In this document: positions 2,007 to 46,986 of the stretch, piece by piece
Layout of the letters: each line of letters opens with the position of its first letter
Numbering within the stretch: the stretch's first letter is position 1
Source: a virus
Lineage: Duplodnaviria > Heunggongvirae > Uroviricota > Caudoviricetes
DNA: 55,336 nt
Direction: 5' to 3' (one strand)
IMG/VR virus record: IMGVR_UViG_2541047870_000005
The notes under the pieces: generated by a model
The model's database searches: none
Seen by the model: the letters and a program-made list of their open reading frames with translations, nothing else
What the model was told of the DNA's origin: nothing
Made by a program: the position numbers and the translations under genes

Positions 2007-2237
2007 GTGATTATATCGACCCTTGAACATAAAGTACGTTATTATTCAGTGTCTGATATTTTATATGTATTAATCATTATAAATAATGGCTGCATTTAAT
2101 TGTAGCCATTACTTTAAAACATTGTACAAATGGCAGGTGTAGTCTTTAACGCAACTCTAATGATAATCATCAATGTAAATATTCATTTATACTTTAAATG
2201 GGTAGGCTGATCCTACCCACGTAATATGGACACAGGC

Positions 2238-3104
2238 CTAAGCGAGGTTCTGGTTTTCAAATTGTTCCGGACTGAGGCCGCCACACCAACTGTGCCGCCG
2301 CCACCGATTGTAATCACATTCGATATAATTAAACACCGTTGCCCGCATTATTTCCCGGCTGATAAAGTGTTCTCCATGGATACATTCCACTTTCAGCGAA
2401 TGAAAGAAGCTTTCCACGCAGGCATTATCGTAGCAGCAACCTTTTGCGCTCATACTTCCACGCAGATTATGCCGCTTCAGTTGCGCCTGATAATCTGCTG
2501 AACAGTACTGGCCTCCACGGTCCGTGTGAACGATAACGTTCCGGGGCCTCTTACGCCGCCACAGCGCCATCTGCAGGGCATCGCAGGCCAGTTGCGCCGT
2601 CATGCGTGGCGACATTGACCAGCCAATAACGGCACGTGACCACAGGTCAATGACCACTGCCAGATACAGCCAGCCTTCATCTGTACGTAAGTACGTGATG
2701 TCTCCTGCCCACTTCTGGTTCGGGCCACTGGCGTAAAAATCCTGCTCCAACAGATTTTCTGACACAGGCAGGCCGTGTGCGCGGTAGCTGACCGGGCTGA
2801 ACTTCCGGGAGGCCTTTGCCCTCAGTCCCTGACGGCGCAGGCTTGCCGCCACGGTTTTTACGTTAAAGGGGTAACCCTGAGCACGCAGTTCATCCGTCAG
2901 GCGTGGGGCACCGTAACGCTGTTTTGACCGGGTAAAAGCCGCGAGGACAACGCTGTCGCAGTGTTGGCGGAACTGCTGACGCGTGCTTATCCTTGTCCGC
3001 CGCTGACACCACGTATACCAGCCGCTGCGGGCCACCCGGAGCACGCGGCACATTGCTTTGATGCTGAACTCAGCCTGATGTTTTTCAATAAAGACATACT
3101 TCAT
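2238..3104 (-). CDS. IS3-family transposase OrfB
   Basis: 288-aa ORF overlapping the 3' end of orfA in the -1 frame, as expected for the IS3 frameshift-fusion arrangement. Confidence 0.85.
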
Positions 3105-24600: not shown

Positions 24601-24627
24601 AATAGGGCAGATACTGCCCTATTTTAA
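24601..24627. terminator. Bidirectional rho-independent terminator between convergent portal gene and cargo operon
   Basis: aaaa-tagggcag-atac-ctgccctat-tttt: 8-bp stem, 4-nt loop, A-tract on one side and T-tract on the other. Confidence 0.7.
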
Positions 24628-25476
24628 CCAAATATTATAATCCAATCTTTCTACGTATCTTGAAATAACGGCTAGAGCAATTGCTTGCCCTACACTTGTT
24701 AGTTCAATTCCTTGATAGTTGCTCTTTGAAAATTTTTCTAAAAATGCAGACACATGAGGGGCAACTAACTTAAGATTTGAAATATACGCACTCTTATCTT
24801 TTATATCAGTCGGATATTTATCCATGAAATAGTCTTCAACATCTATCCCTAAAAAAGTATTCCATGAACAAGCCCCTGCATATTGAATGTGATATATCTG
24901 GGCTTGAGACAAATTAAACCCATTAGTATACATTGGTTCAAGATTTCTAAAATTGCGCTCCAACAAATCCAATCGAACACCATTAACAGGATCTTTGATC
25001 TCAACATTCTTGAGAAGAAAAACTATCGTTATAAGTGATATTTGTTGCTGTGTTAACTTTGGAACTACAGTAACTGCCTCCGTTAAAACTATATCTCTAA
25101 AATCGTCATTGTTATTGGAGACTCGTTCAACTAACAACTGAGAAAGCACATCCATATTAGCTTTCTTTCCCTTCCTGGCTGATGACTTTAATGCCTCAGT
25201 CAATGTCGCCTGAACGTCCGGATCGCAAAATTTATCAATAATCAATCTATCAACGTTTTTTGTTAAATCCGAAACGACACGCTCTTCAAAATCTTTTGCA
25301 TTCTCTTGAGCTGCAGCATAAGCAACATCTTTCAATTTTGGGAACTGATTTTCGAAGAGAATGTTGAATAGTTCTCTAACCTCGGAAAACGACATCCCTG
25401 AAACATTTACATTATTTCCAGCTTGAATTGCATACGAATTATTACCTATTTGTTGCTTTTGTTTATCACTAAACAT
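24619..25476 (-). CDS. Hypothetical 285-aa protein, AT-rich cargo between portal gene and cos-like site; second gene of a two-gene operon
   Basis: Long AT-rich ORF 9 bp downstream of the small membrane-protein gene; no recognisable motifs. Confidence 0.7.
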   Translation of the reverse strand: MFSDKQKQQIGNNSYAIQAGNNVNVSGMSFSEVRELFNILFENQFPKLKDVAYAAAQENAKDFEERVVSDLTKNVDRLIIDKFCDPDVQATLTEALKSSARKGKKANMDVLSQLLVERVSNNNDDFRDIVLTEAVTVVPKLTQQQISLITIVFLLKNVEIKDPVNGVRLDLLERNFRNLEPMYTNGFNLSQAQIYHIQYAGACSWNTFLGIDVEDYFMDKYPTDIKDKSAYISNLKLVAPHVSAFLEKFSKSNYQGIELTSVGQAIALAVISRYVERLDYNIWLK

Positions 25477-25485
25477 ATATCCTCC

Positions 25486-25731
25486 TTATTTTTTATCACC
25501 TGTATTTATACAATCAATTTTAATATCACCGCCAGCCTGGACACCAATTGAATTATCACCAACTGATTGACTCATAGAATTATATTTATTTTTTGTAGTG
25601 ATAAGTAATCCAGCTAAAGCGCTAACTGCAGCCAAAAATGCAACAATAGAATCAAAACCAGGATCCATATAAAGCCATAATCCAGCAATCAATGCCAGTA
25701 TACATGTAATGACTATTGCAAAAATTTTCAT
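25486..25731 (-). CDS. Small membrane protein (81 aa, two predicted TM helices); first gene of the cargo operon
   Basis: Hydrophobic segments IFAIVITCILALIAGLWLY and IVAFLAAVSALAGLLIT; C-terminal motif resembles the N-terminus of the downstream protein. Confidence 0.6.
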   Translation of the reverse strand: MKIFAIVITCILALIAGLWLYMDPGFDSIVAFLAAVSALAGLLITTKNKYNSMSQSVGDNSIGVQAGGDIKIDCINTGDKK

Positions 25732-25785: not shown

Positions 25786-25935
25786 ACGCTCAGCGCGCGC
25801 TCGTATCCCCGCCACGCCTGCCCGCTTTGTATAGCGGTTTTCATGCACTCGCATGGCATAAGGGAAACCTTGCCAGAACTGGCGACCCTCAGCGAAAACG
25901 ATCTTCAAACGATCATGCGGATTCATGCAGCATAG
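25786..25935. other. Putative prophage cos (packaging) region
   Basis: GC-rich non-coding segment homologous to 42890-43033; minus strand reads GGCGTGGCGGGGA, matching my recollection of the P2/186-family cohesive end. Confidence 0.5.
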
Positions 25936-26138
25936 ACAGGCACTACTGAGCAATAGCGCTTGAGTTCAGTCAGATATGAGTCCTCAATGTAATACTAATA
26001 CATCTTAACCGTTCATCATTATTCACATCGGGCTATGTAATTACAGAAAAACTTTTCACAATCAATTTTATACTGGATTATTTCAGTTTATTGTATAATT
26101 CATGACGCATGCAAATTGACATTAATTCAGGAGACAAA

Positions 26139-27050
26139 ATGACATTAATTGTAGCTGGTTTCGAAAAAGATGGAACAATTGTTTTTTGCGGGGACTCACT
26201 AATAACAACAAAAGCAAATGGAAGCACTGTAAAATTGACATCGTCCTTTAGAAAAATAATACCACTAGAAATTATTGTGCGAGTACCGGAAATCGATCCA
26301 AGTGGAAAAATCATAAATTACATTGAAAGCCTTTGCCAACATCGCTGCATGATTGCATTTGCAGGAAGCACGCTAGTTTCTCAACATATTATAAATTCTA
26401 TACAAGGTCATCTGAAACAAATAAAATACACATATGATTCTGGCACATATGACTATTCAGAAGGATGCATAAAGGGTGCTGGCTATAAGTTAATAATGGG
26501 TTGTGAAGATAACAAAAGCGTTGAGGAAACCTATTGGAACGAAGATATGTTTGTTGAGCCAGTAAAGAATGCGAACGAACTTATTAATAAAAATTTTCTA
26601 CGCAACGTCTTTAGCCACTGCATACAGAAAACCATGAATGAATTTTACATTAATATTAATGAGGAATTTAATCCAGAGTGGTTTGCAAGCGATTTCATTG
26701 TAGCTCTGTCTTGCTATGAGACTAAAAAAAACCATCTTTTTACCTTTAAAATGGAATTTAATGAGTCAGGGGTCAATCTTATAGAAAAAGAAATTAATAT
26801 CAATGAACTGGCAATAATTGGCATTTCAAGATATAGCGAAGAAATAATTCAAGCATATCAAACTCAAAAAGCGACCCTCAGTACATCTGAAATTCTCAGC
26901 CAAGAGATTACTAAAGCAATCATAGACAATGAAAGCATTGATCTTAGAGAAATAGGAGATCCTGTCGTATTAAAAAAATTCAATCAACATCGTGAATTAC
27001 GTGATGAGCAAAAACACTGGAGGTGCAATACTCCTCGAGAAAACCAATAA
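26139..27050 (+). CDS. HslV/proteasome beta-subunit-like (Ntn-hydrolase fold) protein, about 303 aa, AT-rich cargo gene
   Basis: SD aggag 5 nt upstream of ATG 26139 (ORF track starts at 26109); MTLIVAGFEKDGTIVFCGDSLIT...VKL...IAFAGST...LAIIGISRYSEEIIQAY parallels HslV [21 protein letters not shown]...KK...AGFAGGT...LIAIGSGGPYAQAAARAL (recalled from memory). Confidence 0.5.
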   Translation: MTLIVAGFEKDGTIVFCGDSLITTKANGSTVKLTSSFRKIIPLEIIVRVPEIDPSGKIINYIESLCQHRCMIAFAGSTLVSQHIINSIQGHLKQIKYTYDSGTYDYSEGCIKGAGYKLIMGCEDNKSVEETYWNEDMFVEPVKNANELINKNFLRNVFSHCIQKTMNEFYININEEFNPEWFASDFIVALSCYETKKNHLFTFKMEFNESGVNLIEKEININELAIIGISRYSEEIIQAYQTQKATLSTSEILSQEITKAIIDNESIDLREIGDPVVLKKFNQHRELRDEQKHWRCNTPRENQ

Positions 27051-34881: not shown

Positions 34882-36093
34882 ATGAAAATTAATAAAATTA
34901 GTACCACAGATTATGTAGCAATGCTTAATGAAATATTATTCGAAATAGAGTCCAAACCACTATTACAAGCTCCTTATCTCGCGGGAAATAATATCATTAA
35001 AGATTTTAACAATAGGGTTAAATGTTACCTAGAAGTCATAAACAAGATTTACAGTAAAAACCCTCACAACCTTGTAATTCGTGAAATAAAATCAAAAATA
35101 AAAAGCACAAAAACACTCTCGGATAAAATTTCAGAAACACTTAGATTATATTTAAACGGTAAAATCAAAGAATCTTACCTAACATTTGATCACGCTATCA
35201 CCAAGACAAATATAAATGACCACATCTATAATATGTCCGTTCCATTAAGTGTATTTTGTCATCCTGGAAAACCTCTATTTCGCGTAAGAAAAAGCGATCA
35301 AATAATAAAAGAAAGGCGTGATATCTTTCATATTCCTTTTTCTAAACGTTATCTTGTGAATGCACAAAGATACTCAGTCTCAGGCCTTCCTTGTTTATAT
35401 TTAGGAACCTCTATTTTTGTATGTTGGCAAGAAATGGAAAAACCAGACTTTGATAAATTATATGTATCTTCATTCATCACAGAGTCTGGTTCATCACATA
35501 GAATACTTAACCTTGGTTATAATTTGAGATCAGCATTGAACATAAACACCTTAGCATGGCTGTTAGATAATGATACTGAAGGAACTATGAATAGGGTCAT
35601 TTCGAACTTAATTTCCTGGCCACTTGTGTTAGCCTGTAATTATACAAAACAACATAAAAACTCTAGTTTCAACCCTGAGTACATAATCCCCAACCTTCTT
35701 ATGCAATGGCTCAGCAGCAATGAAAATAAGGGCATAGCCGGTATCGCTTATCGCACGACTAAAATTCTCAATCAAAAAGATAGTGATATTGGTATTAATA
35801 TAATCATGCCACCTAAAATGGATAATATTTTGGATTCTGGTTATGATTACTGCCCACACTTACTAAATATATTTAAATTTACCAAACCTGTTTCATGGCA
35901 AGTATTTAGCACTTTAAACGTCAAGACCGATGGTATGGATGAAGATAGACTCATAATGGGAGGACCAACTCCAGCATCAGGTACAATTGAAGATTTTGAT
36001 GAATCGCTAGTGGAATATTACAATAATACCTCATTCAAAAAAGTTCAATTGTTAATTCATAAAATGATGAAGCATGATTATCTTGAGCCTTAA
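34882..36093 (+). CDS. RES-domain-like protein (403 aa) with about 150-aa N-terminal extension; AT-rich cargo
   Basis: Segment RYSVSGLPCLYLGTSIFVCWQE reproduces the spacing of the RES-domain core (R-W-N-x-P-G-x-P-x-L-Y-x-x-x-S...E) as I recall the consensus. Confidence 0.5.
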   Translation: MKINKISTTDYVAMLNEILFEIESKPLLQAPYLAGNNIIKDFNNRVKCYLEVINKIYSKNPHNLVIREIKSKIKSTKTLSDKISETLRLYLNGKIKESYLTFDHAITKTNINDHIYNMSVPLSVFCHPGKPLFRVRKSDQIIKERRDIFHIPFSKRYLVNAQRYSVSGLPCLYLGTSIFVCWQEMEKPDFDKLYVSSFITESGSSHRILNLGYNLRSALNINTLAWLLDNDTEGTMNRVISNLISWPLVLACNYTKQHKNSSFNPEYIIPNLLMQWLSSNENKGIAGIAYRTTKILNQKDSDIGINIIMPPKMDNILDSGYDYCPHLLNIFKFTKPVSWQVFSTLNVKTDGMDEDRLIMGGPTPASGTIEDFDESLVEYYNNTSFKKVQLLIHKMMKHDYLEP

Positions 36094-36126
36094 GTGGCGG
36101 CGTTTTGGCGGTAGAGTATTAAGAGG

Positions 36127-37080
36127 ATGCAGTTACAAAAAACCTCTAACTCCATTATAGAAATAGGAAGTGATCTGATGAATAACATCATCTATACAAA
36201 CGAACAATATGAAATCGAAAATCTAAGTATAGCCCTGTATGCAATTTTCGATAAAATAAAAGAAAGGATTTCCATCGCCGAAGAATCTAACATTTACACT
36301 ATCAGAGATGTTGGTCATAACTCGGAATCTCAAGTTTGCAAAAACACTTTTAATAAATTAACGCAATTTTTTGATTCAAACATTCTTTACATCCAAGACT
36401 GTGAAGTCTTAATTTCATATATAACAGAGTGTAGTTTGGAACTCTCTGTTATAGCGCAACAATTTTATGAAATACTCTGGAGCGATTTGTTAATAACCAC
36501 ACCAGACAAAGATTTTAAAGGGATTTTAGTAGCAAAATCGCCAAAAACAAGCTTGCTATTTTCTTTGTTAAGCATGCTATTTATAAAAATGAATAGTTTG
36601 TTTGACTACGTTACTAAAATCTCCTTTGAATTATTAAAGAGTAACTTCCCAATCTCTAAATACAAGAAATTAATATCCAAAAATAAATTATACGGCAACT
36701 ATAAAGAATTAGTTTTTTCGACAACAACGGATACCATATTTGAAAATAGCAATTTTATAAACACTGTAACATCATTACGAAATCATATAATTCACCACGG
36801 TTATATAGATGAGCACCCAAAGGTATATGTTGAAGTGGAAAATGGCATTGCATTTGGGAGATTTGTACTATTCCCCGATTTGAATGAGAGTGGAGGACTG
36901 GAAAATTGCATTAACAGAACTTTATTCTATTCAAAAGAAACAAAGATTGATGAAAAATTACCTGACTTAATTAAGGAATGCCAAATTAAAGTAATTAACT
37001 CGTTGAAGGTACTAATTAAAGATCATGAAGCATTAGAAGATTCAAGAAAGACTGGCGGCACTTTGGCGGCAGAGCATTAA
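36127..37080 (+). CDS. Hypothetical 317-aa protein with HEPN-like Rx4H motif (Abi-like candidate); AT-rich cargo
   Basis: Motif LRNHIIHHGY; gene lies 33 bp downstream of the RES-like gene on the same strand. Confidence 0.45.
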   Translation: MQLQKTSNSIIEIGSDLMNNIIYTNEQYEIENLSIALYAIFDKIKERISIAEESNIYTIRDVGHNSESQVCKNTFNKLTQFFDSNILYIQDCEVLISYITECSLELSVIAQQFYEILWSDLLITTPDKDFKGILVAKSPKTSLLFSLLSMLFIKMNSLFDYVTKISFELLKSNFPISKYKKLISKNKLYGNYKELVFSTTTDTIFENSNFINTVTSLRNHIIHHGYIDEHPKVYVEVENGIAFGRFVLFPDLNESGGLENCINRTLFYSKETKIDEKLPDLIKECQIKVINSLKVLIKDHEALEDSRKTGGTLAAEH

Positions 37081-37165
37081 AAACGAGTAAAATGAACAAA
37101 CACCGAGTAATACCAACCTACTGTTTTAAAAAGCAAATCATTGTTTTTGTTATAGTTAAGATAGT

Positions 37166-37210
37166 ATGTAGGAATTTCGGACGCGGGTTCAACTCCCGCC
37201 AGCTCCACCA
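37166..37210 (+). other. ssrA: 45-nt 3' terminal fragment of tmRNA gene ssrA ending in CCA (integration core / att copy), not a complete ssrA
   Basis: atgtaggaatttcggacgcgggttcaactcccgccagctccacca matches the E. coli ssrA 3' end; sequence upstream does not continue the ssrA match. Confidence 0.8.
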
Positions 37211-37279: not shown

Positions 37280-37330
37280 TGTTTGTCGTTGTCCGAGAAC
37301 ATCCGGCTAAATCCGATGATTATTGGTATA

Positions 37331-37384
37331 CGTTTCGGTATACGGTAGGATGTATACCTAAAAGCGTATACCAATTCATGAAGG
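37331..37384. promoter_or_regulatory. Cluster of four GGTATAC/GTATACC sites upstream of the satellite integrase gene
   Basis: ttGGTATACgtttcGGTATACggtaggatGTATACCtaaaagcGTATACC; the first 23 bp recur at 49543-49565. Confidence 0.5.
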
Positions 37385-37394
37385 AGCGGCCACA

Positions 37395-38594
37395 GTGGCA
37401 CGGACAACACGCCCCCTGACCAACACCGAAGTTCTGCGCGCGAAAGCGTTAGAGAAGGATCTAACGCTGCATGATGGCGATGGGCTTTTCCTGATAGTGA
37501 AAACTAGCGGCAAGAAACTCTGGCGCTTTCGCTATCAACGCCCAGCAACAAAACAGCGGACTATGATGGGACTTGGTGCTTTTCCTGCCCTTTCTCTTGC
37601 TGATGCCCGAGGGTTAAGAGCAGATTACCTTGCCCTATTAGCCAACGGAATCGACCCGCAAATTCAAGCTGAAGTTGCAGAGGAACAGCAGCAAATCGCT
37701 CTGGACAGTATTTTTTCGACGGTCGCCGCTAACTGGTTCCAGCTCAAAAGCAAAAGCGTTACCCATGATTACGCTAAAGATATATGGCGTTCACTGGAAA
37801 AAGACGTATTCCCCACCATCGGGGAGATCCCTGTCCAGCAAATCAAAGCCCGAACACTGGTTGAAGCCCTTGAACCGATCAAAGCTCGTGGGGCGCTGGA
37901 GACGGTGCGCCGGTTGGTGCAGCGTGTTAACGAGATAATGATTTATGCCGTAAATACTGGTCTTATTGATGCCAATCCAGCATCAGGCATTGGAATGGCC
38001 TTTGAGAAGCCAAAAAAACAAAATATGCCTACGTTGCGCCCAGAAGAATTGCCTATGCTGATGCGTTCTCTCGTCATGTCAAATTTGTCTGTTCCGACTC
38101 GCTGCCTCATTGAGTGGCAACTCCTGACTCTAGTTCGTCCTTCTGAGGCTTCCGGTGCTAGGTGGGCTGAGCTCGATCTCGATGCAAAGCTCTGGACTAT
38201 CCCAGCTGAACGAATGAAGGCTAAGCGGGAACACATAGTCCCTCTATCTCCTCAGGCATTAGAGATTCTTGATGTGATGAAGCTAATCAGTGCCCATCGT
38301 GAACATGTTTTCCCGAGTCGGAATGACCCAAAGCAACCAATGAATAGCCAGACGGCAAATGCTGCTTTAAAAAGGATTGGATTTGGTGGTAGATTGGTTG
38401 CTCATGGATTGCGTTCAATTGCCAGCACCGCATTAAATGAAGCGGGTTTTAATGCAGATGTAATTGAGGCTGCTCTTGCACATAGTGATAAAAATGAAGT
38501 GCGCAGAGCATATAATCGTTCAACTTACCTTGAGCAACGAATAGGACTTATGAATTGGTGGGGCCAAAAAGTGTACGAGCGCAATCAATATTAG
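37395..38594 (+). CDS. P4-type tyrosine integrase (IntA-like); GTG start
   Basis: 399-aa ORF about 185 bp downstream of the ssrA core, as for intA next to ssrA in E. coli K-12; integrase-like N-terminal region. Confidence 0.85.
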   Translation: MARTTRPLTNTEVLRAKALEKDLTLHDGDGLFLIVKTSGKKLWRFRYQRPATKQRTMMGLGAFPALSLADARGLRADYLALLANGIDPQIQAEVAEEQQQIALDSIFSTVAANWFQLKSKSVTHDYAKDIWRSLEKDVFPTIGEIPVQQIKARTLVEALEPIKARGALETVRRLVQRVNEIMIYAVNTGLIDANPASGIGMAFEKPKKQNMPTLRPEELPMLMRSLVMSNLSVPTRCLIEWQLLTLVRPSEASGARWAELDLDAKLWTIPAERMKAKREHIVPLSPQALEILDVMKLISAHREHVFPSRNDPKQPMNSQTANAALKRIGFGGRLVAHGLRSIASTALNEAGFNADVIEAALAHSDKNEVRRAYNRSTYLEQRIGLMNWWGQKVYERNQY

Positions 38595-39174: not shown

Positions 39175-41757
39175 CTATTGTACCCAAAAGTTACGAAATA
39201 TATTATGTATTTCGTTTTGAACTAATTGTGGCAGTTCTTCCATGTCAACTTTATTGTCCTTAATCCAATTAATGCATTCTTCCTCATCTAAACTATCATT
39301 AGGAATAAGCTCTGAAATCATTACAGCAGCAGTTCTTGAAAAGCCAAGCCCTATTAGTGAAATCTGAGTTTTTAAACTTACACCCAGTTCTAAATAAACA
39401 CCGATATCTTCAACATCTTTTGCTAAGTCTGTGCGATCTATCGAAAGATAAAAGCTTTTTAATAAATCATTATAACATCCTAAAAGCCTTGGAGCTTGAT
39501 AGCGAGCGATCTCTTCAACATCCTTCATAACCCCTCGTATTAAAGTCGCTTCTTTGAAAACAATATTTTTCTTTTTGTTATATCTTATTCTATCCGAGAT
39601 CAATCTTGCTAGGGGATAACCTTTCATCCACTTGGAAACTAACAAGGCCTGTACGTAAGCTCCTTTTGAATTATAACCTAGCTTCTTACTCAGAGTATCA
39701 CTAATTCTAGAGAATGCGGATACATATGAATCTAACGCATCATTACTACCAGGTTCAGAAAGCAGTAATCTCTCTACAGGTTTGTTTGTATCCCGCGAAA
39801 ATCTATCCCAAAGGTTTTGCATTAAAAGCGGGCTTATACCAGGATGCCGCACAACCAATTCGTGTGGAAAAGTTAAAGAATCAAAAACATCAAATATTGC
39901 TTCATTTAAAACATCGATATTTTTTATATTGTACTTTTCCATGTAAGGATTATTATCCAAGCCATTATAAAAATAAAATGATGAACATAAATAACTAAAT
40001 AGACTCTGGAGATTAGGATTCCGCTCAGACATACCAAAATGATGCTCTGAAAAAATATAGGAAACCAACTTATCCATGTCATGGGAAATAGCATCCGTGG
40101 CGCGAGTTATAAATATATTTTTTTTGGTTTTTGGAGGCTCTCCATTCCAAATTTTTTCATTGTCGCTATCGATGCAGATGACATTACCTTGGAATTCTTT
40201 TCCCCAACGACCAGCTCTGCCAGCAAGATTCCAAAAATCCTCTTCTCGCATCGGGGTTGAATTACCCTTTTTAGGGCCTCTTATAAAAATATTTTTACAA
40301 GCCATGTTTACGCCCTCAACTAAAGTTGAGGTACAAATTAAAAAATCAATCTTACCTTTACTAAACAATCGTTCAATCTCGCCCTTTATTATTAAAGGCA
40401 TGTTGCCATAATGAAAAGCGACTCTCTTTTTTAGAGTGCGATTTAATGCGAAATTTTTATGTATAATTGTCTCACTAAGCTCAACGAGAGCTAAAATTTC
40501 TTCATCCTCAGTCTCATTTTCTATACTTGCAGATATTAGCTTGGAAGTAGATTCTGCTTCAGCGGCTCCATTTACGTAAACTACGTTACCAGAAGCCCCC
40601 TTACCTAAACAAAGAGCTACAAAAGGCAATCTTTTACTTTCAGGAGATGGTGCATTTTCTAAAGAAAAGTTTCCTAACTCGCGTTTTTCACCGTTTGCAA
40701 AATAATACATCAACCAATCTTTGGTCTTGCGTGGTTTTTGTTCTACCCATATTAAATTTTGATTAACTGTAACATAGTCACTTTTTATAGTTCTTTTGTT
40801 TTTTAATATTGGAGCATCACTGAGCAATATTTCAGGATTTAAGGTGAAAGGACTTGCAAAGATAACTTTTGAATCAGGGTTATTTAGACAAGTCAGTTCA
40901 ATTACATGTTGAAGAATAACACCTCTTCCACCATCACCGATCTTGTGTGCTTCATCAACAACTAAGACGTCTATCTTTGGAATTTGTGAGAAATGATTGT
41001 AGAATAAATTTAATCTTTCCTGTGTAAATATGAAGACATTAGATTTTTCGCTCTGGTATACATTACTCAATGGTAGTGTCTGAATATTAACTATATTTGT
41101 TAAATTAGGATCCAAACGTTTTTGCAACTCAGAATATACTTCTGAAATCAATGCCCTTGTTGGTACGATATAAATAACTAAGCAATTCTTATTTCTTTTT
41201 ACAAACTGCTCCACCCAAGATTCCAGGATAAATGATTTTCCTACAGAGGTAGGAGCAGAGACACTAACCCATGAGTTTTCTTGTACCGCATCCCAAAACT
41301 CTGATTGAAACCTATTAGCATAAATATGCTTATCAGCATCTATTTCAATTGTATATAGAATTTTTCTTTTAGTTAGTTCTAACTGAGCCTTTAAGGGTAA
41401 TCTTTCTTCGAAATCAGGGTTAAGATACCCCCTATTTTCAGCAAGTTGTATTGCTGGATTATTAGATAATGAATCAAGAATTAATGCAGCACTATCTTTT
41501 CTTGCTTCACTTTTTTCATTCAATAAGCAATACTGTGCAATCCTTAAGGCTGCATCTTGGCATTTCTCATCACTTGAGAAAGCCAAAGAACTAGCACATG
41601 TTAAAAGATAGCCGACATCCTCAGAACTAATCTGTGGGATTACATCTGATTTTAACTCTGGAAATTGATCTTTTATCGAGTTAGCGACTAATGCCTGATA
41701 TTTTCTTAAGAATCCTTGATTCTTAATCAACCACCCAGATAAATCTCGCAACGACAT
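39175..41757 (-). CDS. hamB: SF2 DExH-box helicase, HamB-like (Hachiman-type defence helicase candidate)
   Basis: 860-aa AT-rich ORF; Walker A APTSVGKSF and motif II VLVVDEAHKIG; start overlaps the stop of the upstream gene. Confidence 0.55.
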   Translation of the reverse strand: MSLRDLSGWLIKNQGFLRKYQALVANSIKDQFPELKSDVIPQISSEDVGYLLTCASSLAFSSDEKCQDAALRIAQYCLLNEKSEARKDSAALILDSLSNNPAIQLAENRGYLNPDFEERLPLKAQLELTKRKILYTIEIDADKHIYANRFQSEFWDAVQENSWVSVSAPTSVGKSFILESWVEQFVKRNKNCLVIYIVPTRALISEVYSELQKRLDPNLTNIVNIQTLPLSNVYQSEKSNVFIFTQERLNLFYNHFSQIPKIDVLVVDEAHKIGDGGRGVILQHVIELTCLNNPDSKVIFASPFTLNPEILLSDAPILKNKRTIKSDYVTVNQNLIWVEQKPRKTKDWLMYYFANGEKRELGNFSLENAPSPESKRLPFVALCLGKGASGNVVYVNGAAEAESTSKLISASIENETEDEEILALVELSETIIHKNFALNRTLKKRVAFHYGNMPLIIKGEIERLFSKGKIDFLICTSTLVEGVNMACKNIFIRGPKKGNSTPMREEDFWNLAGRAGRWGKEFQGNVICIDSDNEKIWNGEPPKTKKNIFITRATDAISHDMDKLVSYIFSEHHFGMSERNPNLQSLFSYLCSSFYFYNGLDNNPYMEKYNIKNIDVLNEAIFDVFDSLTFPHELVVRHPGISPLLMQNLWDRFSRDTNKPVERLLLSEPGSNDALDSYVSAFSRISDTLSKKLGYNSKGAYVQALLVSKWMKGYPLARLISDRIRYNKKKNIVFKEATLIRGVMKDVEEIARYQAPRLLGCYNDLLKSFYLSIDRTDLAKDVEDIGVYLELGVSLKTQISLIGLGFSRTAAVMISELIPNDSLDEEECINWIKDNKVDMEELPQLVQNEIHNIFRNFWVQ

Positions 41758-41758
41758 T

Positions 41759-42700
41759 TCAACTCTCCAATGCTTTAATTAAACTAGCCCTAAATGCTTT
41801 TACTGAAGGAAAAGGAAGAATAAAAACATGCATAGCAAAGCGATCAAGTTTTTTATTAACTATACCACCTTGCACACTAGTTGACCATTTCCCGACTTTA
41901 GTATTAATCAAAGCAACTAGTTCACTGATATCAATTGAACTGGGCCCTTGTGGATAATCTTTAAGATCAAACCCAACTAAGCATATTCCTCTGTATTCCA
42001 ATTTATTAAAATCCGGGCTATCAGGATCTAAGAATCTTTTCAACGCTTGTTCTAGTTCTATATCATCAACATTTAAGTGCGACTCCAGCAACTGCATATC
42101 ACGTGTCTCAGCGCCTTCTATTCCCATAGAACTTTGAAGTAATGGAGCTATACTATCCATACACTCAGAAATACCTTTGCTCAGATTGGAATAGAGTTTA
42201 GACTCGCCCCAGTATAAACATAATTTTTTATTATCTTTATCTACGCCTATATGTATTCCATCTGCACCATGGTAATGCATTTGAGAACTCGTTTTCAGGC
42301 TCATTTTGCAAATAATTTGTGGAAATCTAAGGAATTGCTCTGCAAATAAAAAAAGAATAAATTCACCGCCTTCGCCACTATTTGCAAGCCTAGTAAATAA
42401 TTTTTTTGCTTGATTTGCTAATTTTGTTATTTTCGCTGTTGATTGTGTTTCATTAAAATATTGCACTGCCTCATTGATTTTTTTCCTTGGAATAGCATAA
42501 TCAACTACTTTATCGTTCAAGAATTGGATTAACGCGTCTACCCGAGGACGTCCATTGCCATCAAGATTAAGGCAATGAAAATGACAAGTTGCATTTGTAT
42601 TTTCAATCAATGAATTAACTTTAACTTCACTAAAATAACTATTTAGTGTTTGACCATCATCTCTAATCAGATTTTCAAGCGCGACATGCAGTGCATCCAT
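41759..42700 (-). CDS. hamA: HamA-like protein with PD-(D/E)xK-type motif (Hachiman-type effector candidate)
   Basis: 313-aa AT-rich ORF immediately upstream of the helicase; GIHIGVD ... LYWGESK resembles a PD-(D/E)xK nuclease signature. Confidence 0.5.
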   Translation of the reverse strand: MDALHVALENLIRDDGQTLNSYFSEVKVNSLIENTNATCHFHCLNLDGNGRPRVDALIQFLNDKVVDYAIPRKKINEAVQYFNETQSTAKITKLANQAKKLFTRLANSGEGGEFILFLFAEQFLRFPQIICKMSLKTSSQMHYHGADGIHIGVDKDNKKLCLYWGESKLYSNLSKGISECMDSIAPLLQSSMGIEGAETRDMQLLESHLNVDDIELEQALKRFLDPDSPDFNKLEYRGICLVGFDLKDYPQGPSSIDISELVALINTKVGKWSTSVQGGIVNKKLDRFAMHVFILPFPSVKAFRASLIKALES

Positions 42701-42889
42701 GAGTAGGTCCTTGCATATTTTATTTTCCTCATCATTTGCAATATATACTTATTTCAATAGCTTGCAACATTTTTACTCGACAATGATACTTACACCACAC
42801 TCGCTGCTTAAAATCATTGTTATCGCTTTAACGTGATAAACGATTCTTTCAATCAGGTACTCATTGAAAGTTAAAAGTTACTTTGACCA

Positions 42890-43033
42890 TACACAGCGTG
42901 CGCTGCCCCGCCCGCCTGCCCGCTTCGCTTAACAGACTGGTTTTCATGCACCCCGTAAATCGTCTCAGAAGCCACCACACAAGGGCTTTCGCGTCAAAAA
43001 TGGCGCATGAGACTCATGCGTTTTCATGCGCTA
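42890..43033. other. Putative satellite cos (packaging) region
   Basis: GC-rich non-coding segment homologous to 25786-25935; minus strand reads GGCGGGCGGGGCAGCGCACGCTG, resembling the P2/P4 cohesive end as I recall it. Confidence 0.45.
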
Positions 43034-43125
43034 TAGATATGCACTCATACGCCTTCAGGCCAGCCAGGGAAAAGGCGTAAAAAATCCCGGTACTGGACCG
43101 GGACTACGTGGGCGTATTTTGCTAA

Positions 43126-43398
43126 TCAGACAGGAATTAGCTGACGGCTTGACAGCTTTGACGCGGAGCCATAGCGGTTGAGAGTTTGCTGTTGTTTTTC
43201 TGGCATTTGTTCTTTGTCTGATTCCTGTTCATTGCGCCAAGGCTTCATAATTATCGTATCCACGCTTTCCAGAGCGGTAAATGTGCAGGAACATTCCAGA
43301 TTCTGGCACTGATACCATGAGCGTTTAACCGATGGAGCTTCATAGGCGCTGGTTCTGGCGTGAGCGACCGTCCCACATTCAGGACACTTCAGGGCCAT
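43126..43398 (-). CDS. Delta/Ogr-like zinc-finger transactivator of helper late genes
   Basis: MALKCPECGTVAHARTS...YQCQNLECSCTF matches the Ogr/Delta zinc-finger pattern; start taken at the internal Met; the ORF track begins at 43500. Confidence 0.7.
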   Translation of the reverse strand: MALKCPECGTVAHARTSAYEAPSVKRSWYQCQNLECSCTFTALESVDTIIMKPWRNEQESDKEQMPEKQQQTLNRYGSASKLSSRQLIPV

Positions 43399-43399
43399 A

Positions 43400-43954
43400 T
43401 CAGTACCCTCCTTTTTCATTAAGTCGGTTAAGGCGGGCCAGGAAAACTTTATGTTGTGCCGGGGTGAAACTGGTTGAAGCATCAGCGTACATTGATGCAT
43501 CCACCGTTAATCCGGTTTCGTCGATAATGCTCTTGTATGCTGCTGAAATTACCGGAGTACGCACTTCCGTTTGTCGGGCTACAGCGGTTCGTAATATTTT
43601 CATTGCCGCCTCAAGCCCGTATGGAGCGCAAAGAAAAGGAGCCAGTGCGTCAGTGAGTGCATCACCATGCTCGCTCATGAAGTTTTCCGTTGCGCTTGTA
43701 ACACAACTCTCCAGCACAATCTGGTGAGCATAAAGACCATCCCGTGCAGCACAGTTAATCTGCCATTCGAGGACAGCAAGACGCTCACGAAGCTCCTCAA
43801 GCTGGCTGGCATATGCTGCCGGTTTTTCTTCAGTATTCAGCAGAGCCGCCAGACGAAGCTGGTAGGTACTTTGCGTATTACGTAGTGTCAGCCAGCTTTT
43901 TATCGCCGAGCGGTAATCGTTGAGAGCTTCCTGAGTAATGGTTCCGGCATTCAT
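43400..43954 (-). CDS. psu: Psu-like protein (polarity suppression / capsid decoration)
   Basis: 184-aa ORF in the sid-psu-delta block; segments FMSEHGDALTDALAPF and SFTPAQHKVF resemble P4 Psu as I recall it. Confidence 0.55.
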   Translation of the reverse strand: MNAGTITQEALNDYRSAIKSWLTLRNTQSTYQLRLAALLNTEEKPAAYASQLEELRERLAVLEWQINCAARDGLYAHQIVLESCVTSATENFMSEHGDALTDALAPFLCAPYGLEAAMKILRTAVARQTEVRTPVISAAYKSIIDETGLTVDASMYADASTSFTPAQHKVFLARLNRLNEKGGY

Positions 43955-44736
43955 TTCTTCTCGCCCCCTTTAACCATGTCACGCTGTTTAAGCATCCGTG
44001 AACGCGCTGCAGGGCTGGGGGATTGTCTGGCATCCTGGATGGCTTTATCGTCCGCATAAATGCTGATCCCCGGCAGGGTAATATCATCCGTTGAAGATAC
44101 GTTACAGGACAGTGCCGGAGTGGTGAGGTGCTCGCTGATAAATTGCTTCAGCACACTTTCGGGGTCGTTTACGGTATGAACTACACCGATAACAGCAGAA
44201 GCGCTTCGGCCCAGAGTCATTTTCAACAGTCCAAGGATCTGAATAAGTTTCTGGCCGTGTTCCTTCATAAACTCATTCCAGAGCCACACTGCATGAGTTT
44301 CAATCAGGCGATTATGTTCGCTGATGTAGTGGTTTGCAGCATCCGCAGTTTTCCAGGGCAGGAATTCATTTTCTGCCACCTGAGCTGCCAGCAAATCTTC
44401 GAACTCATCCAGTGTTTCGCGTCCGAGGGCGATTTCTGCCCGCAGTTTTTTCATGCGTGGTGTCATATTTCCCTGATTCTCACGAAACAGGTTTCGCCAT
44501 TCATCATTAAGCGCCTGCGTTTCCGTTTTTGTATCTTCCTGACGTTTACGGATAGTTTCAATCATTGCAGCAGCTTCAGTTTGTTTTCGCCGTTCTTCCT
44601 GCCAGACAGCTTTTGCTGCCTTAACTTTTTCCACCGCTTCGCGAATTTTCGGCGGGAGGGAGGATGTAATGTTTGCATCAGAGATCTGGTTAACAGTAGT
44701 CATGAATGCTCCGGTAGTGTTTTGTTGTCGTGTCAA
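43951..44736 (-). CDS. sid: Sid-like capsid size-determination protein
   Basis: 261-aa coiled-coil-rich ORF first in the operon upstream of psu; assignment by position and size. Confidence 0.45.
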   Translation of the reverse strand: MTRQQNTTGAFMTTVNQISDANITSSLPPKIREAVEKVKAAKAVWQEERRKQTEAAAMIETIRKRQEDTKTETQALNDEWRNLFRENQGNMTPRMKKLRAEIALGRETLDEFEDLLAAQVAENEFLPWKTADAANHYISEHNRLIETHAVWLWNEFMKEHGQKLIQILGLLKMTLGRSASAVIGVVHTVNDPESVLKQFISEHLTTPALSCNVSSTDDITLPGISIYADDKAIQDARQSPSPAARSRMLKQRDMVKGGEKK

Positions 44737-45616: not shown

Positions 45617-45877
45617 ATGCATGATATTTCTGTTTCTGCGCCAGCTCCGGCTGCGCCATTATTTCCTGTGCTGAACCAGCATGAGCGATTTTTACGTCTT
45701 CCCGAGGTGATGCATTTATGCGGCTTGTCCCGCTCAACTATATACGACCTGATAAGCCGCGATGCTTTCCCGAAGCAGATCCCGCTTGGTGGTAAAAATG
45801 TTGCCTGGGCACAGTCAGAGGTAAGCGCATGGATGGCGGATCGTATAAGTGCCCGCGGACGGGGATGTGATGCATAA
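45617..45877 (+). CDS. alpA: AlpA/Vis-family transcriptional regulator
   Basis: [48 protein letters not shown] is the typical AlpA-family HTH signature. Confidence 0.8.
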
Positions 45878-46428
45878 TGATGCCTGAACGCATTAATCCC
45901 CATTTTTCTGGCTTGCATCCTGCAGTCATTTCCAGGTATAGTTTTTCCGCTGCCGCAAAATCGGCAGCCGGAATTGGCGTTCCGCGAAACTCAATGGCGA
46001 CACCAGACGCGCCAAGCGTCTTTTTTTTCGTCGAAGCTCTGGCACACCCATTTTCCAGGCTGTGGTGTTTATGCGTACACCGTGGTTCTTTCGAGATAAT
46101 GGCAGTCCGGGCGGGGCAGCCTTCGGGCTGGCCGGTATCCATTGAGGCCGGTTACGCCAACCCCGTTCGGGCTGCCACCAGTGAAATTGGCGTTTCCGGT
46201 GGTAGCAATAACCGCTACTCAATGGAGGCTGCCATCATGGCTACAACCCTCACCCCGTTTTACCCGCAATATGTCTTTGTGCTTGCCGCAATCCGCCGTG
46301 CTGACACTCAACCCCGCATCTGTATGCTTCGCACCGTGGCCTGCGATGAGCGCTTTGCACGCCTTTCGCTGGTCCGTGATTATGTGCTCTCCCTTTCTGC
46401 ACGGCTGCCTGCCGGGGAGGTGATGTGA
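45877..46428 (+). CDS. Hypothetical protein (start uncertain), translationally coupled to downstream genes
   Basis: GC-rich ORF whose stop overlaps the next start (ATGA); several overlapping alternative ORFs on both strands make the 5' end unreliable. Confidence 0.35.
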
Positions 46429-46652
46429 TGAATCACGCCGCAATTTCTTATGACGATATTGTCCGCCTCAAGCATCTTCGTAACGTGGGGGAATTTGTCA
46501 CCGGAATGGCTGTTCTTCAGGACTGCTATGAAAAACCTGCAGGTGCTCAATGTGAGCAACTGGTTTCCCTGATTTATCTGATGACAGAACAGCTTGATGG
46601 CGTGGTACAGCGTTGCCAGGATGACCTGATGAACAAGGAGGTGGTGCAATGA
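46425..46652 (+). CDS. Hypothetical small protein (75 aa)
   Basis: 4-bp start/stop overlaps with flanking genes (operon coupling). Confidence 0.5.
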
Positions 46653-46972
46653 AATCACGCACTCTTCCCCTCTCACTTCGGCTGGCGTTATATCGCCGCG
46701 CGGTTGCCTGCGCCTGGCTGAGTATCTGCCATCAGCACAACCGCCACCTGCAGCTCACTCTGGATGAAATTGAAACCGCCATTGCCCGTGAGCTTGAAGG
46801 TTTTTATCTGCGACAGCACGGGCAAACAAAAGGCATGGAAATCGCCTGCGCCCTGCTTTCAGACCTGATGGAATCCGGTCCTCTAATGTCCTGCCCCGCA
46901 CTCTCCCAGCTCGGAATAGCCGTAATGGATGAGTTATGCGTCCGTCACATTATAAAGCCGGTTTTACACTGA
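46649..46972 (+). CDS. Hypothetical protein (107 aa)
   Basis: Coupled ORF immediately upstream of the primase gene. Confidence 0.5.
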
Positions 46973-46986
46973 GGGAGAACTGCATC

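Follow-up and report, generated by a model that had tools for sequence, protein, structure and literature searches.

A candidate cos allele with a rearranged nick region, found only in P4-like satellites in the sampled collections

The cos site is where helper terminase recognizes and nicks satellite DNA and starts its packaging. P4 is usually thought to be packaged because it carries the core cos signal of its helper (e.g., PMC9122126). Does this hold for a P4-like satellite that lies beside a potential helper? The window analyzed here is a 55,336-nt stretch of Escherichia coli DNA (IMG/VR record IMGVR_UViG_2541047870_000005) that contains a P2/186-like prophage and, adjoining it, a P4-like satellite. 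An earlier note on this DNA had paired one segment in each element (25786-25935 and 42890-43033), had taken the second for the satellite cos with a divergent cohesive-end region, and had asked whether the satellite is packaged by this prophage or by a different P2-type helper. Both segments are at about these positions, the prophage cos at 25793..25943 and the satellite cos at 42896-43044, and both are on the minus strand, to which the coordinates of all cos elements below refer. In our preferred reading, which we hold at a probability of roughly 70%, the satellite would carry a working cos that is used with the helper group of the resident prophage and yields private cohesive ends.

Architecture and position of the satellite cos

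The two segments share a series of blocks: a box region GTGCATNTCTAT-N3-GCATGA-N3-CGCATGA, ∼60 nt of unconserved spacer, TGCATGAAAACC, 8 nt, AAGCG, a GC-rich stretch and CGC(G/A)CGCTG. P2, P4, and 186 have this series around their annotated cohesive ends. In the satellite, the three GCAT(G) boxes (GTGCATATCTATAGCGCATGAAAACGCATGA, 43014..43044), which have positional counterparts in P2, P4, 186, helpers and satellites and are presumed to be terminase recognition elements, lie 94 nt from a 55-bp core (42896..42950) that we call allele T1. This core consists of the TGCATGAAAACC block (42939..42950), 17 nt, 19 nt, and the right flank CGCACGC (42896..42902), the last conserved bases before a variable hotspot. 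The corresponding prophage elements are the boxes (25913-25943), the TGCATGAAAACC block (25836-25847), the 19-mer GGCGTGGCGGGGATACGAG (25800-25818), and the right flank CGCGCGC (25793-25799). All core blocks (TGCATKAAAACC, AAGYG, the GC-rich 19-mer and, in helpers, YGCGCGC) have identical offsets in T1, where the last block reads CGCACGC. The sum TGCATKAAAACC + 17 + 19 + YGCGCGC comes to 55 nt and fits the published "55-bp core" of Ziermann and Calendar, in the form in which later papers refer to it (PMC5694545, PMC3931495, PMC5247547). The motif TGCATKAAAACC-N8-AAGYG, which also fits P2, P4, and 186, occurs exactly twice in the window, at the two cos sites, with 0 occurrences expected from shuffled sequences; the same is true of TCTAT-N3-GCATGAA-N2-CGCATGA, a motif that was built from the two window sequences themselves.

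The satellite cos lies 200 nt past the stop codon of delta, with its boxes toward the late operon and the hotspot (Hachiman genes, then int) on the opposite side. In satellites of the P2/P4 family, cos likewise separates the late operon from the non-essential/hotspot region that lies toward int. Homology to other E. coli satellites starts at 42895-42905, the border with the variable hotspot, and in sister satellites whose backbones are 99.4% identical the cargo differs from position 42896 on. A variable hotspot next to cos has been described by Rousset et al. (PMC9122126).

We compared the site with the P4 cos (Ziermann and Calendar, 1990; NC_001609), as the earlier note had proposed. The blastn search of 42700-43200 against 50,697 phage records, P4 included, gave zero matches, and anchored alignments were used because the P4 cos is too diverged for BLAST. 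The two sites are alike in their position between late operon and hotspot region, in orientation (boxes on the late-operon side), in the three GCAT boxes, and in the block order and 55-nt length of the core. They differ in core identity (36/55), in the 19-mer, which in P4 equals that of P2 and in T1 matches no helper, in the duplication of AAGCG and the 5-nt displacement of the nick motif in T1 (described below), and in the neighboring gene, which is delta in the satellite and not psu. The expected place just past the late operon was confirmed, and the gene order had to be corrected: it is sid-psu-delta here and sid-delta-psu in P4.

The proposed pairwise comparison of the two window sites was not significant on its own: the best local BLAST match between the two cos regions had E = 4.4, and ungapped identity was 39% over 175 nt. 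With pairwise similarity this weak, the case for homology is drawn from the architecture that the sites have in common and from a family of more than 200 related cos regions. The similarity might in principle come from an unrelated shared repeat or a regulatory element such as a terminator or promoter, and two observations fit that idea, the insignificant BLAST match and a terminator-like hairpin (CGCATGAGTCTCATGCG, then a T-run, 43004..43020) that overlaps the third box. We regard it as very improbable given that the same multi-block layout and spacing surround the experimentally defined ends of P2, P4, and 186 and that within the window this layout occurs only at the two expected cos positions. 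A separate stem-loop with a T-run 3' of delta (CCCGGTCCAGTACCGGGATTTTTT, 43079..43102), which was read directly from the sequence and missed by a consensus scan, is likely the late-operon terminator. Based on the P2/P4/186 layout, the P4-like position, and a right edge that falls where satellite homology stops, we concluded that the segment is very probably the cos of the satellite.

A rearranged nick region with conserved spacing

The satellite core continues after TGCATGAAAACC with AGTCTGTTAAGCGAAGC (17 nt), GGGCAGGCGGGCGGGGCAG (19 nt) and CGCACGC, and the prophage core with GCTATACAAAGCGGGCA (17 nt), GGCGTGGCGGGGATACGAG (19 nt) and CGCGCGC; both are 55 nt long and their right flanks begin at offset 48. 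In a gapped alignment the satellite lacks 1 + 3 + 1 bases in the GC-rich stretch and has 5 additional bases to the left of it, where T1 carries AAGCG in tandem (AAGCGAAGCG, 42921..42930) compared with a single AAGCG in helpers and other satellite alleles. The 5-nt duplication offsets the five missing bases, and the core length is therefore equal in both copies. Because AAGCG is duplicated, GCGGGCA (42917..42923), the canonical sequence 5' of the top-strand nick in 186-type cos, is displaced 5 nt toward the hotspot within the GC-rich nick region (42903-42923). The extra "atacg" that the earlier note saw in the prophage copy corresponds to the five gaps in the satellite core; what it had left out are five compensating gaps in the prophage left flank, which keep the spacing. 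Our first MAFFT alignment had also placed an indel in the overhang, and the compensating duplication together with the equal core length led us to reject this as the whole story. That the indels cancel exactly argues for selection on the spacing between the left blocks and the right flank.

Two relatives (L010 and L135) read GGCGTGCGGGG and keep the canonical T at position 5, which supports the descent of T1 from a 186-like GGCGTGGCGGGG by duplication and compensating deletions. In such a course of events the AAGCG duplication would have moved the GCGGGCA|GGCG nick motif 5 nt to the right, and deletions totaling 5 nt would have restored the distance to the right flank. A similar offset was encountered in an autonomous P2-like phage from IMG/VR (L209), 96% identical to Burkholderia phages phiE52237/phiE202: its core ends in AAGCGAGGC, CCGCAGGCGAGGAGGAGAC and TGCGCAA, so that the canonical GGCGAGG starts 5 nt late with the right flank in place, and its register is ambiguous in the same way. 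A literature search for experimentally determined ends of phiE52237/phiX216-type phages, to which L209 belongs, found none.

The T1 core is 33-37/55 identical to the P2, P4, 186, and resident-type cores (35/55 to that of the resident prophage), whereas those cores are 41-53/55 identical among themselves; P4 and P2 share 52/55 positions, and a satellite core of the CTACGAG type shares 53/55 with the helper consensus. The divergence was attributed by the earlier note to the cohesive-end region. It is real there, with 10/19 positions shared between satellite and prophage, but the whole ∼190-nt T1 cos cassette is distinct and only ∼50% identical to every other type. Canonical cohesive ends of the family consist of GGCGWGGCGGGG plus 7 variable nt with GCGGGCR directly before, and GGCGWGGCGGGG is conserved even in Ralstonia, Stenotrophomonas, and Burkholderia phages (PMC5694545, PMC3931495, PMC5247547). 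T1 differs from P2, 186, and the ATACGAG and CTACGAG types in the nick region, where the left-half GGCGWGGCGGGG is matched at only 8-9/12 positions in either register and the 12-mer is shortened to an 11-mer; 10-13/19 positions are shared with helper 19-mers. It resembles them in overall architecture and in the end of the conserved block, which falls at the same offset beside the hotspot. Judged by these bases, the T1 cos is a variant and not a canonical member of the P2/P4 cos family.

Three cutting registers were considered. Register A (42903-42921, 5'-GGGCAGGCGGGCGGGGCAG-3') was derived by ungapped alignment to P2, P4, and 186, whose cohesive ends are annotated in their records, and has its nicks at the conserved spacing; the central GGCGGG is in place, the right nick context is kept, and 6-7 conserved bases lie past the nick as in helpers. 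In register B (42898-42916, GGCGGGCGGGGCAGCGCAC) the nicks follow the displaced GCGGGCA, the left nick context is kept, and the right nick falls at the edge of conservation. In register C (42903-42916) each nick follows its local context, GCGSGCR^ on both strands, which gives a 14-nt end and does not need the shared 19-nt geometry. Since the GCGSGCR^ context on the two strands favors a different register for each nick, nick-context symmetry leaves the T1 cut site undecided. We favor register A over B and C as a tentative first choice; cutting in register B is possible though doubtful, and a 14-nt overhang from register C would be improbable. In registers A and B alike, only 10/19 overhang positions match the resident prophage, and the ends of satellite and helper are therefore not expected to be mutually cohesive.

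Distribution of T1 and the choice of helper

Next, we examined where T1 occurs. The helper survey in IMG/VR, where at least 600 helper loci matched, covered 80 whose portal has ≥93% identity to that of the prophage, and GGCGTGGCGGGGATACGA(G/T) was present in 63/63 of these loci where cos could be located. Satellites with a Psu 89-100% identical to that of the window have two alleles. T1 (GGGCAGGCGGGCGGGGC[A/T]G) accompanies a Psu of 93-100% identity. T2, which has a CTACGAG core (GGCGTGGCGGGGCTACGAG; loci L024-L032), accompanies a Psu of 89-91% and, in all but one locus, a Sid of ∼93% identity. T2 satellites have the same gene order as T1 satellites, with a core 53/55 identical to the helper consensus, a delta of only 74% identity, and cos ∼1 kb from delta. 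The T1 and T2 cassettes are ∼51% identical on otherwise close satellites, from which we concluded that the delta-cos module has been exchanged; an origin of T1 from T2 by a few recent indels was rejected on the same figure, given for the whole ∼190-nt cassette. A Psu-based scan of species-representative genomes yielded 7 loci, too few for our purpose, and was replaced by scans of the IMG/VR and metagenome collections with a degenerate T1 pattern, which matched 22 IMG/VR loci and 41 metagenome loci, 37 of them genuine.

Delta stands beside the T1 core at every IMG/VR and metagenome locus with enough flank, at 207-208 nt from the core in 28/33 metagenome T1 loci with a delta match. None of the 22 IMG/VR and 37 genuine metagenome loci has a terminase gene near T1, and in ∼60 loci from the viral and metagenome collections T1 was never a helper's own cos beside terminase and portal. 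A few T1 loci do have a portal-like gene, which lies beyond cos on the delta-bearing element. Three such satellites (L132 and L133 in IMG/VR, L146 in a metagenome) carry a near full-length portal 85-86% identical to Q of the window, located on the hotspot side of cos at a distance of 1.8-2.2 kb, with cos and Q oriented as in P2 and without a terminase gene; in L133 it matches Pfam Phage_portal and is followed by an insertion sequence (IS). They have the look of chimeras between satellite and helper, with the junction at or near cos.

To compare core types, 118 loci were sampled by means of an architecture pattern that is neutral to type. The ATACGAG core was found in 33 helpers and 0 satellites, the P2/P4-type core in 21 helpers and 4 satellites, the CTACGAG core in 15 helpers and 3 satellites, the 186-type core in 10 helpers and 0 satellites, and T1 in 0 helpers and 3 satellites. 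Other satellite alleles have identical helper counterparts (P4 equals P2, and CTACGAG satellites equal CTACGAG helpers). T1 is a widespread allele that is satellite-only in the sampled collections, and, judged by this sample, about one in three P4-like elements of E. coli carry it. Of 5,426 complete E. coli genomes, 859 (16%), O157:H7 included, contain a sequence homologous to 42880-43125 at ≥80% identity; the P4-like element Sp2 of O157 Sakai has been noted for an ogr-like gene (PMC2669165).

Is the T1 cos functional? When distinct cos regions were compared (43 of T1, 90 of helpers), both sets were conserved from the boxes through the right flank, and conservation stopped at the same offset in both, 6-7 nt past the register-A 19-mer, with unrelated sequence downstream. 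The T1 core is nearly invariant among the 43 distinct copies. On the same elements psu, sid, alpha, and int range from 27% to 100% identity; delta linked to T1 is mostly 80-100% identical, and psu, sid, and alpha go down to 35-48%. A near-invariant core on elements whose other genes are strongly diverged makes a decayed relic of an immobile satellite unlikely, and we consider that explanation highly improbable; the sharp conservation boundary at the hotspot, the exactly compensated indels, and the occurrence of the site, amid varied integrases and cargo, in 16% of the complete E. coli genomes also speak against it. In its favor, the canonical nick context is disrupted at the canonical position, and a search for circular or cos-terminated contigs, as expected of free or packaged satellite DNA, found no terminal repeats in 24 full-length contigs. 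The pattern of conservation suggests that the satellite cos is probably functional.

Several observations favor the resident helper group as cognate helpers. T1 shares TGCATGAAAACC, with G at position 6 compared with T in P2/P4/186, and the TCTAT-N3-GCATGA-N3-CGCATGA boxes with the ATACGAG/CTACGAG cos of E. coli and Klebsiella P2-like phages. Its 31-nt box region matches cos regions of this group at a median of 25/31 positions and the resident prophage at 24/31, compared with 18/31 for P2 and P4 and 16/31 for 186. Sister satellites with 89-93% identical Psu and Sid carry a helper-identical CTACGAG core; Psu and Sid act on the helper capsid, and their closeness suggests that both kinds of satellite use one capsid and hence one helper group. 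The satellite and a prophage of the resident group are inserted in tandem at ssrA in seven complete genomes and four IMG/VR contigs; among the matches listed (80 of at least 600 helper loci; E. coli accessions), satellite and helper overlap only in these tandem cases and in strain C2. E. coli D3, 4012, and 1-62 are examples of strains with this tandem. In the window, whose arrangement these genomes and contigs repeat, the two cos sites (25800 and 42903) have the same orientation and are 17.1 kb apart. In strain 190 the satellite (100% identical over 2.1 kb) adjoins a lambdoid prophage, and in other strains it lies directly at ssrA. On balance, the resident-type helper group may well cut T1. 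In the mechanism that we propose, the terminase of the ATACGAG/CTACGAG helper group, including that of the neighboring prophage, would bind the boxes ∼95 nt upstream of the core and make staggered nicks, most likely at the spacing-conserved positions. The resulting ends, 5'-GGGCAGGCGGGCGGGGCAG, would anneal with each other after injection and not with helper ends.

A number of observations weigh against this proposal. In register A the left nick context GCGGGCA is replaced by GCGAAGC, and the distance from the boxes to TGCATGAAAACC is 94 nt in T1 compared with 96 nt in every other type, a shortening of 2 nt. Among 90 distinct helper copies the 19-mer hardly varies, and the terminase may therefore depend on bases missing from T1. 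The resident prophage cos is atypical of its group: its first box has the sequence TGCCT, and its 17-mer GCTATACAAAGCGGGCA takes the place of the usual ACTACATAAAGCGGGCA. Its top identity is 87% among the matches listed from the 5,426 complete E. coli genomes, and two further records, beyond the matches listed, reach 90-95%. In genomes with an identical int/ssrA/satellite junction (e.g., strain 1-62) the helper cos is only 82% identical, which indicates that the prophage is mosaic. The weak pairwise match between the two window sites counts here too.

The resident prophage matches only 10/19 overhang and 35/55 core positions of T1, for other satellite alleles the core equals a helper core, and many T1 carriers, e.g., O157:H7, have been reported without an intact P2-like helper (PMC2669165). 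These points would be explained if T1 were matched to a different, unsampled P2-type helper with the same nick region, in which case the resident prophage could not package the satellite. We consider this unlikely: no helper with T1 as its own cos was found in the 22 IMG/VR and 37 metagenome loci or in the 118-locus sample, the boxes and TGCATGAAAACC match the resident helper group and not P2/186, and satellites closely related in Psu and Sid have the CTACGAG core, which is identical to that of helpers.

The helper terminase might also be redirected to a private cos by a specificity factor encoded on the satellite. In phage-inducible chromosomal islands (PICIs) the binding site differs from that of the helper, and a dedicated protein retargets the small terminase; Fillol-Salom and colleagues are said to have reported in 2019 that E. 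coli PICIs use Rpp for this purpose. In T1, unlike in PICIs (lambdoid family), the boxes on the binding side resemble those of helpers, and it is the nick region that departs from them. P4 itself is not known to require a terminase-redirecting factor. T1 does resemble the E. coli PICI cos (EcCICFT073, the topic of PMC9026076) in that the packaging signal of the satellite differs from that of its helper. The restriction of T1 to satellites, its difference from all helper cores, and its travel as a tight module with one delta type would suit such a factor. No candidate turned up in domain scans, beyond which no search was made, and ordinary recognition is plausible for a helper-like box region; a redirecting factor seems quite improbable to us. 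In a broader form, T1 would be a private packaging signal that has evolved away from the helper cos, with a rearranged nick site that either is cut by the helper terminase or needs a satellite factor. This too we hold to be unlikely. If true, the ends could not anneal with helper DNA and might differ in length (14 nt), and cos, instead of simply copying the helper signal, would be a place where P4-like satellites and P2-like phages are in conflict or are insulated from each other.

Papers on P4-like satellites and their hotspots mention cos as a landmark only (PMC8628076, PMC9122126, PMC13586616), and we found no description of satellite-specific cos alleles in the literature searched, a limited search that is not proof of absence. 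What the analysis adds is the spacing-preserving rearrangement, the widespread allele seen only in satellites, and the boxes, which continue to indicate the resident helper group. In a satellite lineage that is very common in E. coli, the nick/cohesive-end region has no helper counterpart among those examined, and the boxes are helper-like. If these elements are mobile, P2-type terminases may tolerate more cut-site variation than the near-invariant helper 19-mer suggests; alternatively, the satellites may enforce the use of their own site. This bears on the helper range of P4-like satellites and on the design of P4-based transducing particles. It also bears on the exchange of defense hotspots between phages and satellites: recombination through cohesive ends, as suggested by Rousset et al., presupposes compatible ends, and T1 and helpers would not have them. 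The 55-bp core is a practical marker for typing satellite and helper cos alleles in genomes.

Prophage, satellite and cargo around the two cos sites

The prophage spans ∼3500-34900 in reversed P2 orientation. Its proteins are homologous to the tested P2 head and tail proteins, Q through D, plus ogr (37-67% amino-acid identity), and it has a 186-type cI/apl/cII/int module. After its integrase follow two cargo open reading frames (ORFs) without family match (34882-37080) and a 3' fragment of ssrA (37121-37210), a sub-threshold transfer-messenger RNA (tmRNA) match with E = 3e-8; ssrA is annotated at the same prophage/satellite junction in other genomes. An intact tmRNA gene was not detectable at the ogr end of the prophage.

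The satellite extends from the ssrA fragment to ∼49565. A 23-nt direct repeat (left copy 37321..37343 on the plus strand, right copy 49543-49565, 91%) is a candidate att-region repeat, and the 12,222 bp between its copies make a P4-sized genome. The satellite integrase (37395..38594, plus strand), which adjoins the ssrA fragment, has Pfam integrase domains and is 36% identical to P4 Int. Past a small ORF, a complete Hachiman system forms the cargo of the hotspot abutting cos (39175-42700): HamB (39175-41757, minus strand, 860 aa) has a Pfam DEAD helicase domain and matches PADLOC HamB1 with E = 0, and HamA (41759-42700, minus strand, 313 aa) matches Pfam HamA (3e-61) and PADLOC HamA1 (9.5e-136). 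Of the late genes, all on the minus strand, the one next to cos is delta (43126..43398), which encodes 90 aa with a single Ogr/Delta zinc finger (Pfam Ogr_Delta, 3e-16), is RefSeq-annotated in strain 190, and is 34% identical to P4 Delta, which has two fingers. The next genes are psu (43400..43954; Pfam Psu, 2e-35; 29% identical to P4 Psu) and a sid-like gene (43951..44736) with a BLASTP match to P4 Sid (E = 4e-6, 24% identity) and a weak Psu-family Pfam match.

The early/replication region (45617..49320, plus strand) contains a vis/alpA-like gene, an Ash-family (Phage_ASH) ORF, an orf106-like gene and the alpha primase-helicase (46936-49320, plus strand), identified by Pfam and by tblastn to P4 proteins (67-74% identity); P4 epsilon itself gave zero tblastn matches in the window. 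Inside or beside the Ash-family ORF is a C4/CI antisense RNA (46095-46182; Rfam C4, 84.6 bits), with isrK at 45949-46026 (Rfam, 76.7 bits) and a c4-a1b1 target match at 45936-45988 (45.9 bits, just under the gathering score of 46.7 bits). The P4-type RNA immunity module (CI/C4 RNA, 45936-46182) is thus well conserved although the late genes are 24-34% identical to those of P4. P4-like satellites are ∼10-13 kb long, lack structural genes, and share psu, sid, delta, alpha, an integrase, alpA, and epsilon/ash-type genes (Moura de Sousa and Rocha, PMC8628076). The window satellite encodes Psu, Ogr_Delta, a Sid-like protein, alpha, Int, a Vis/AlpA-like protein, and the Phage_ASH ORF.

Low-GC cargo ORFs without Pfam or PADLOC match lie at 24619-25731 (285 aa and 81 aa, between portal Q and cos), at 26109-27050 (313 aa, on the opposite side of cos), and at 34882-37080 (403 aa and 317 aa, from the prophage integrase to the ssrA fragment). 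These ORFs occupy P2-like defense-hotspot positions and are therefore candidate unknown defense genes. Just outside the ogr end of the prophage, two 898-nt IS copies with an rve-family transposase (1-898 and 2207-3104), 100% complementary and inverted, flank a ParA/AAA_31-like gene (951-2006, GC 0.39) in a composite-transposon-like arrangement. Just beyond the alpha end of the satellite is a large AIDA-type autotransporter gene (50150-53179; YpjA/EhaD-like, 12 stalk repeats), which is a truncated pseudogene in the annotation of strain 190.

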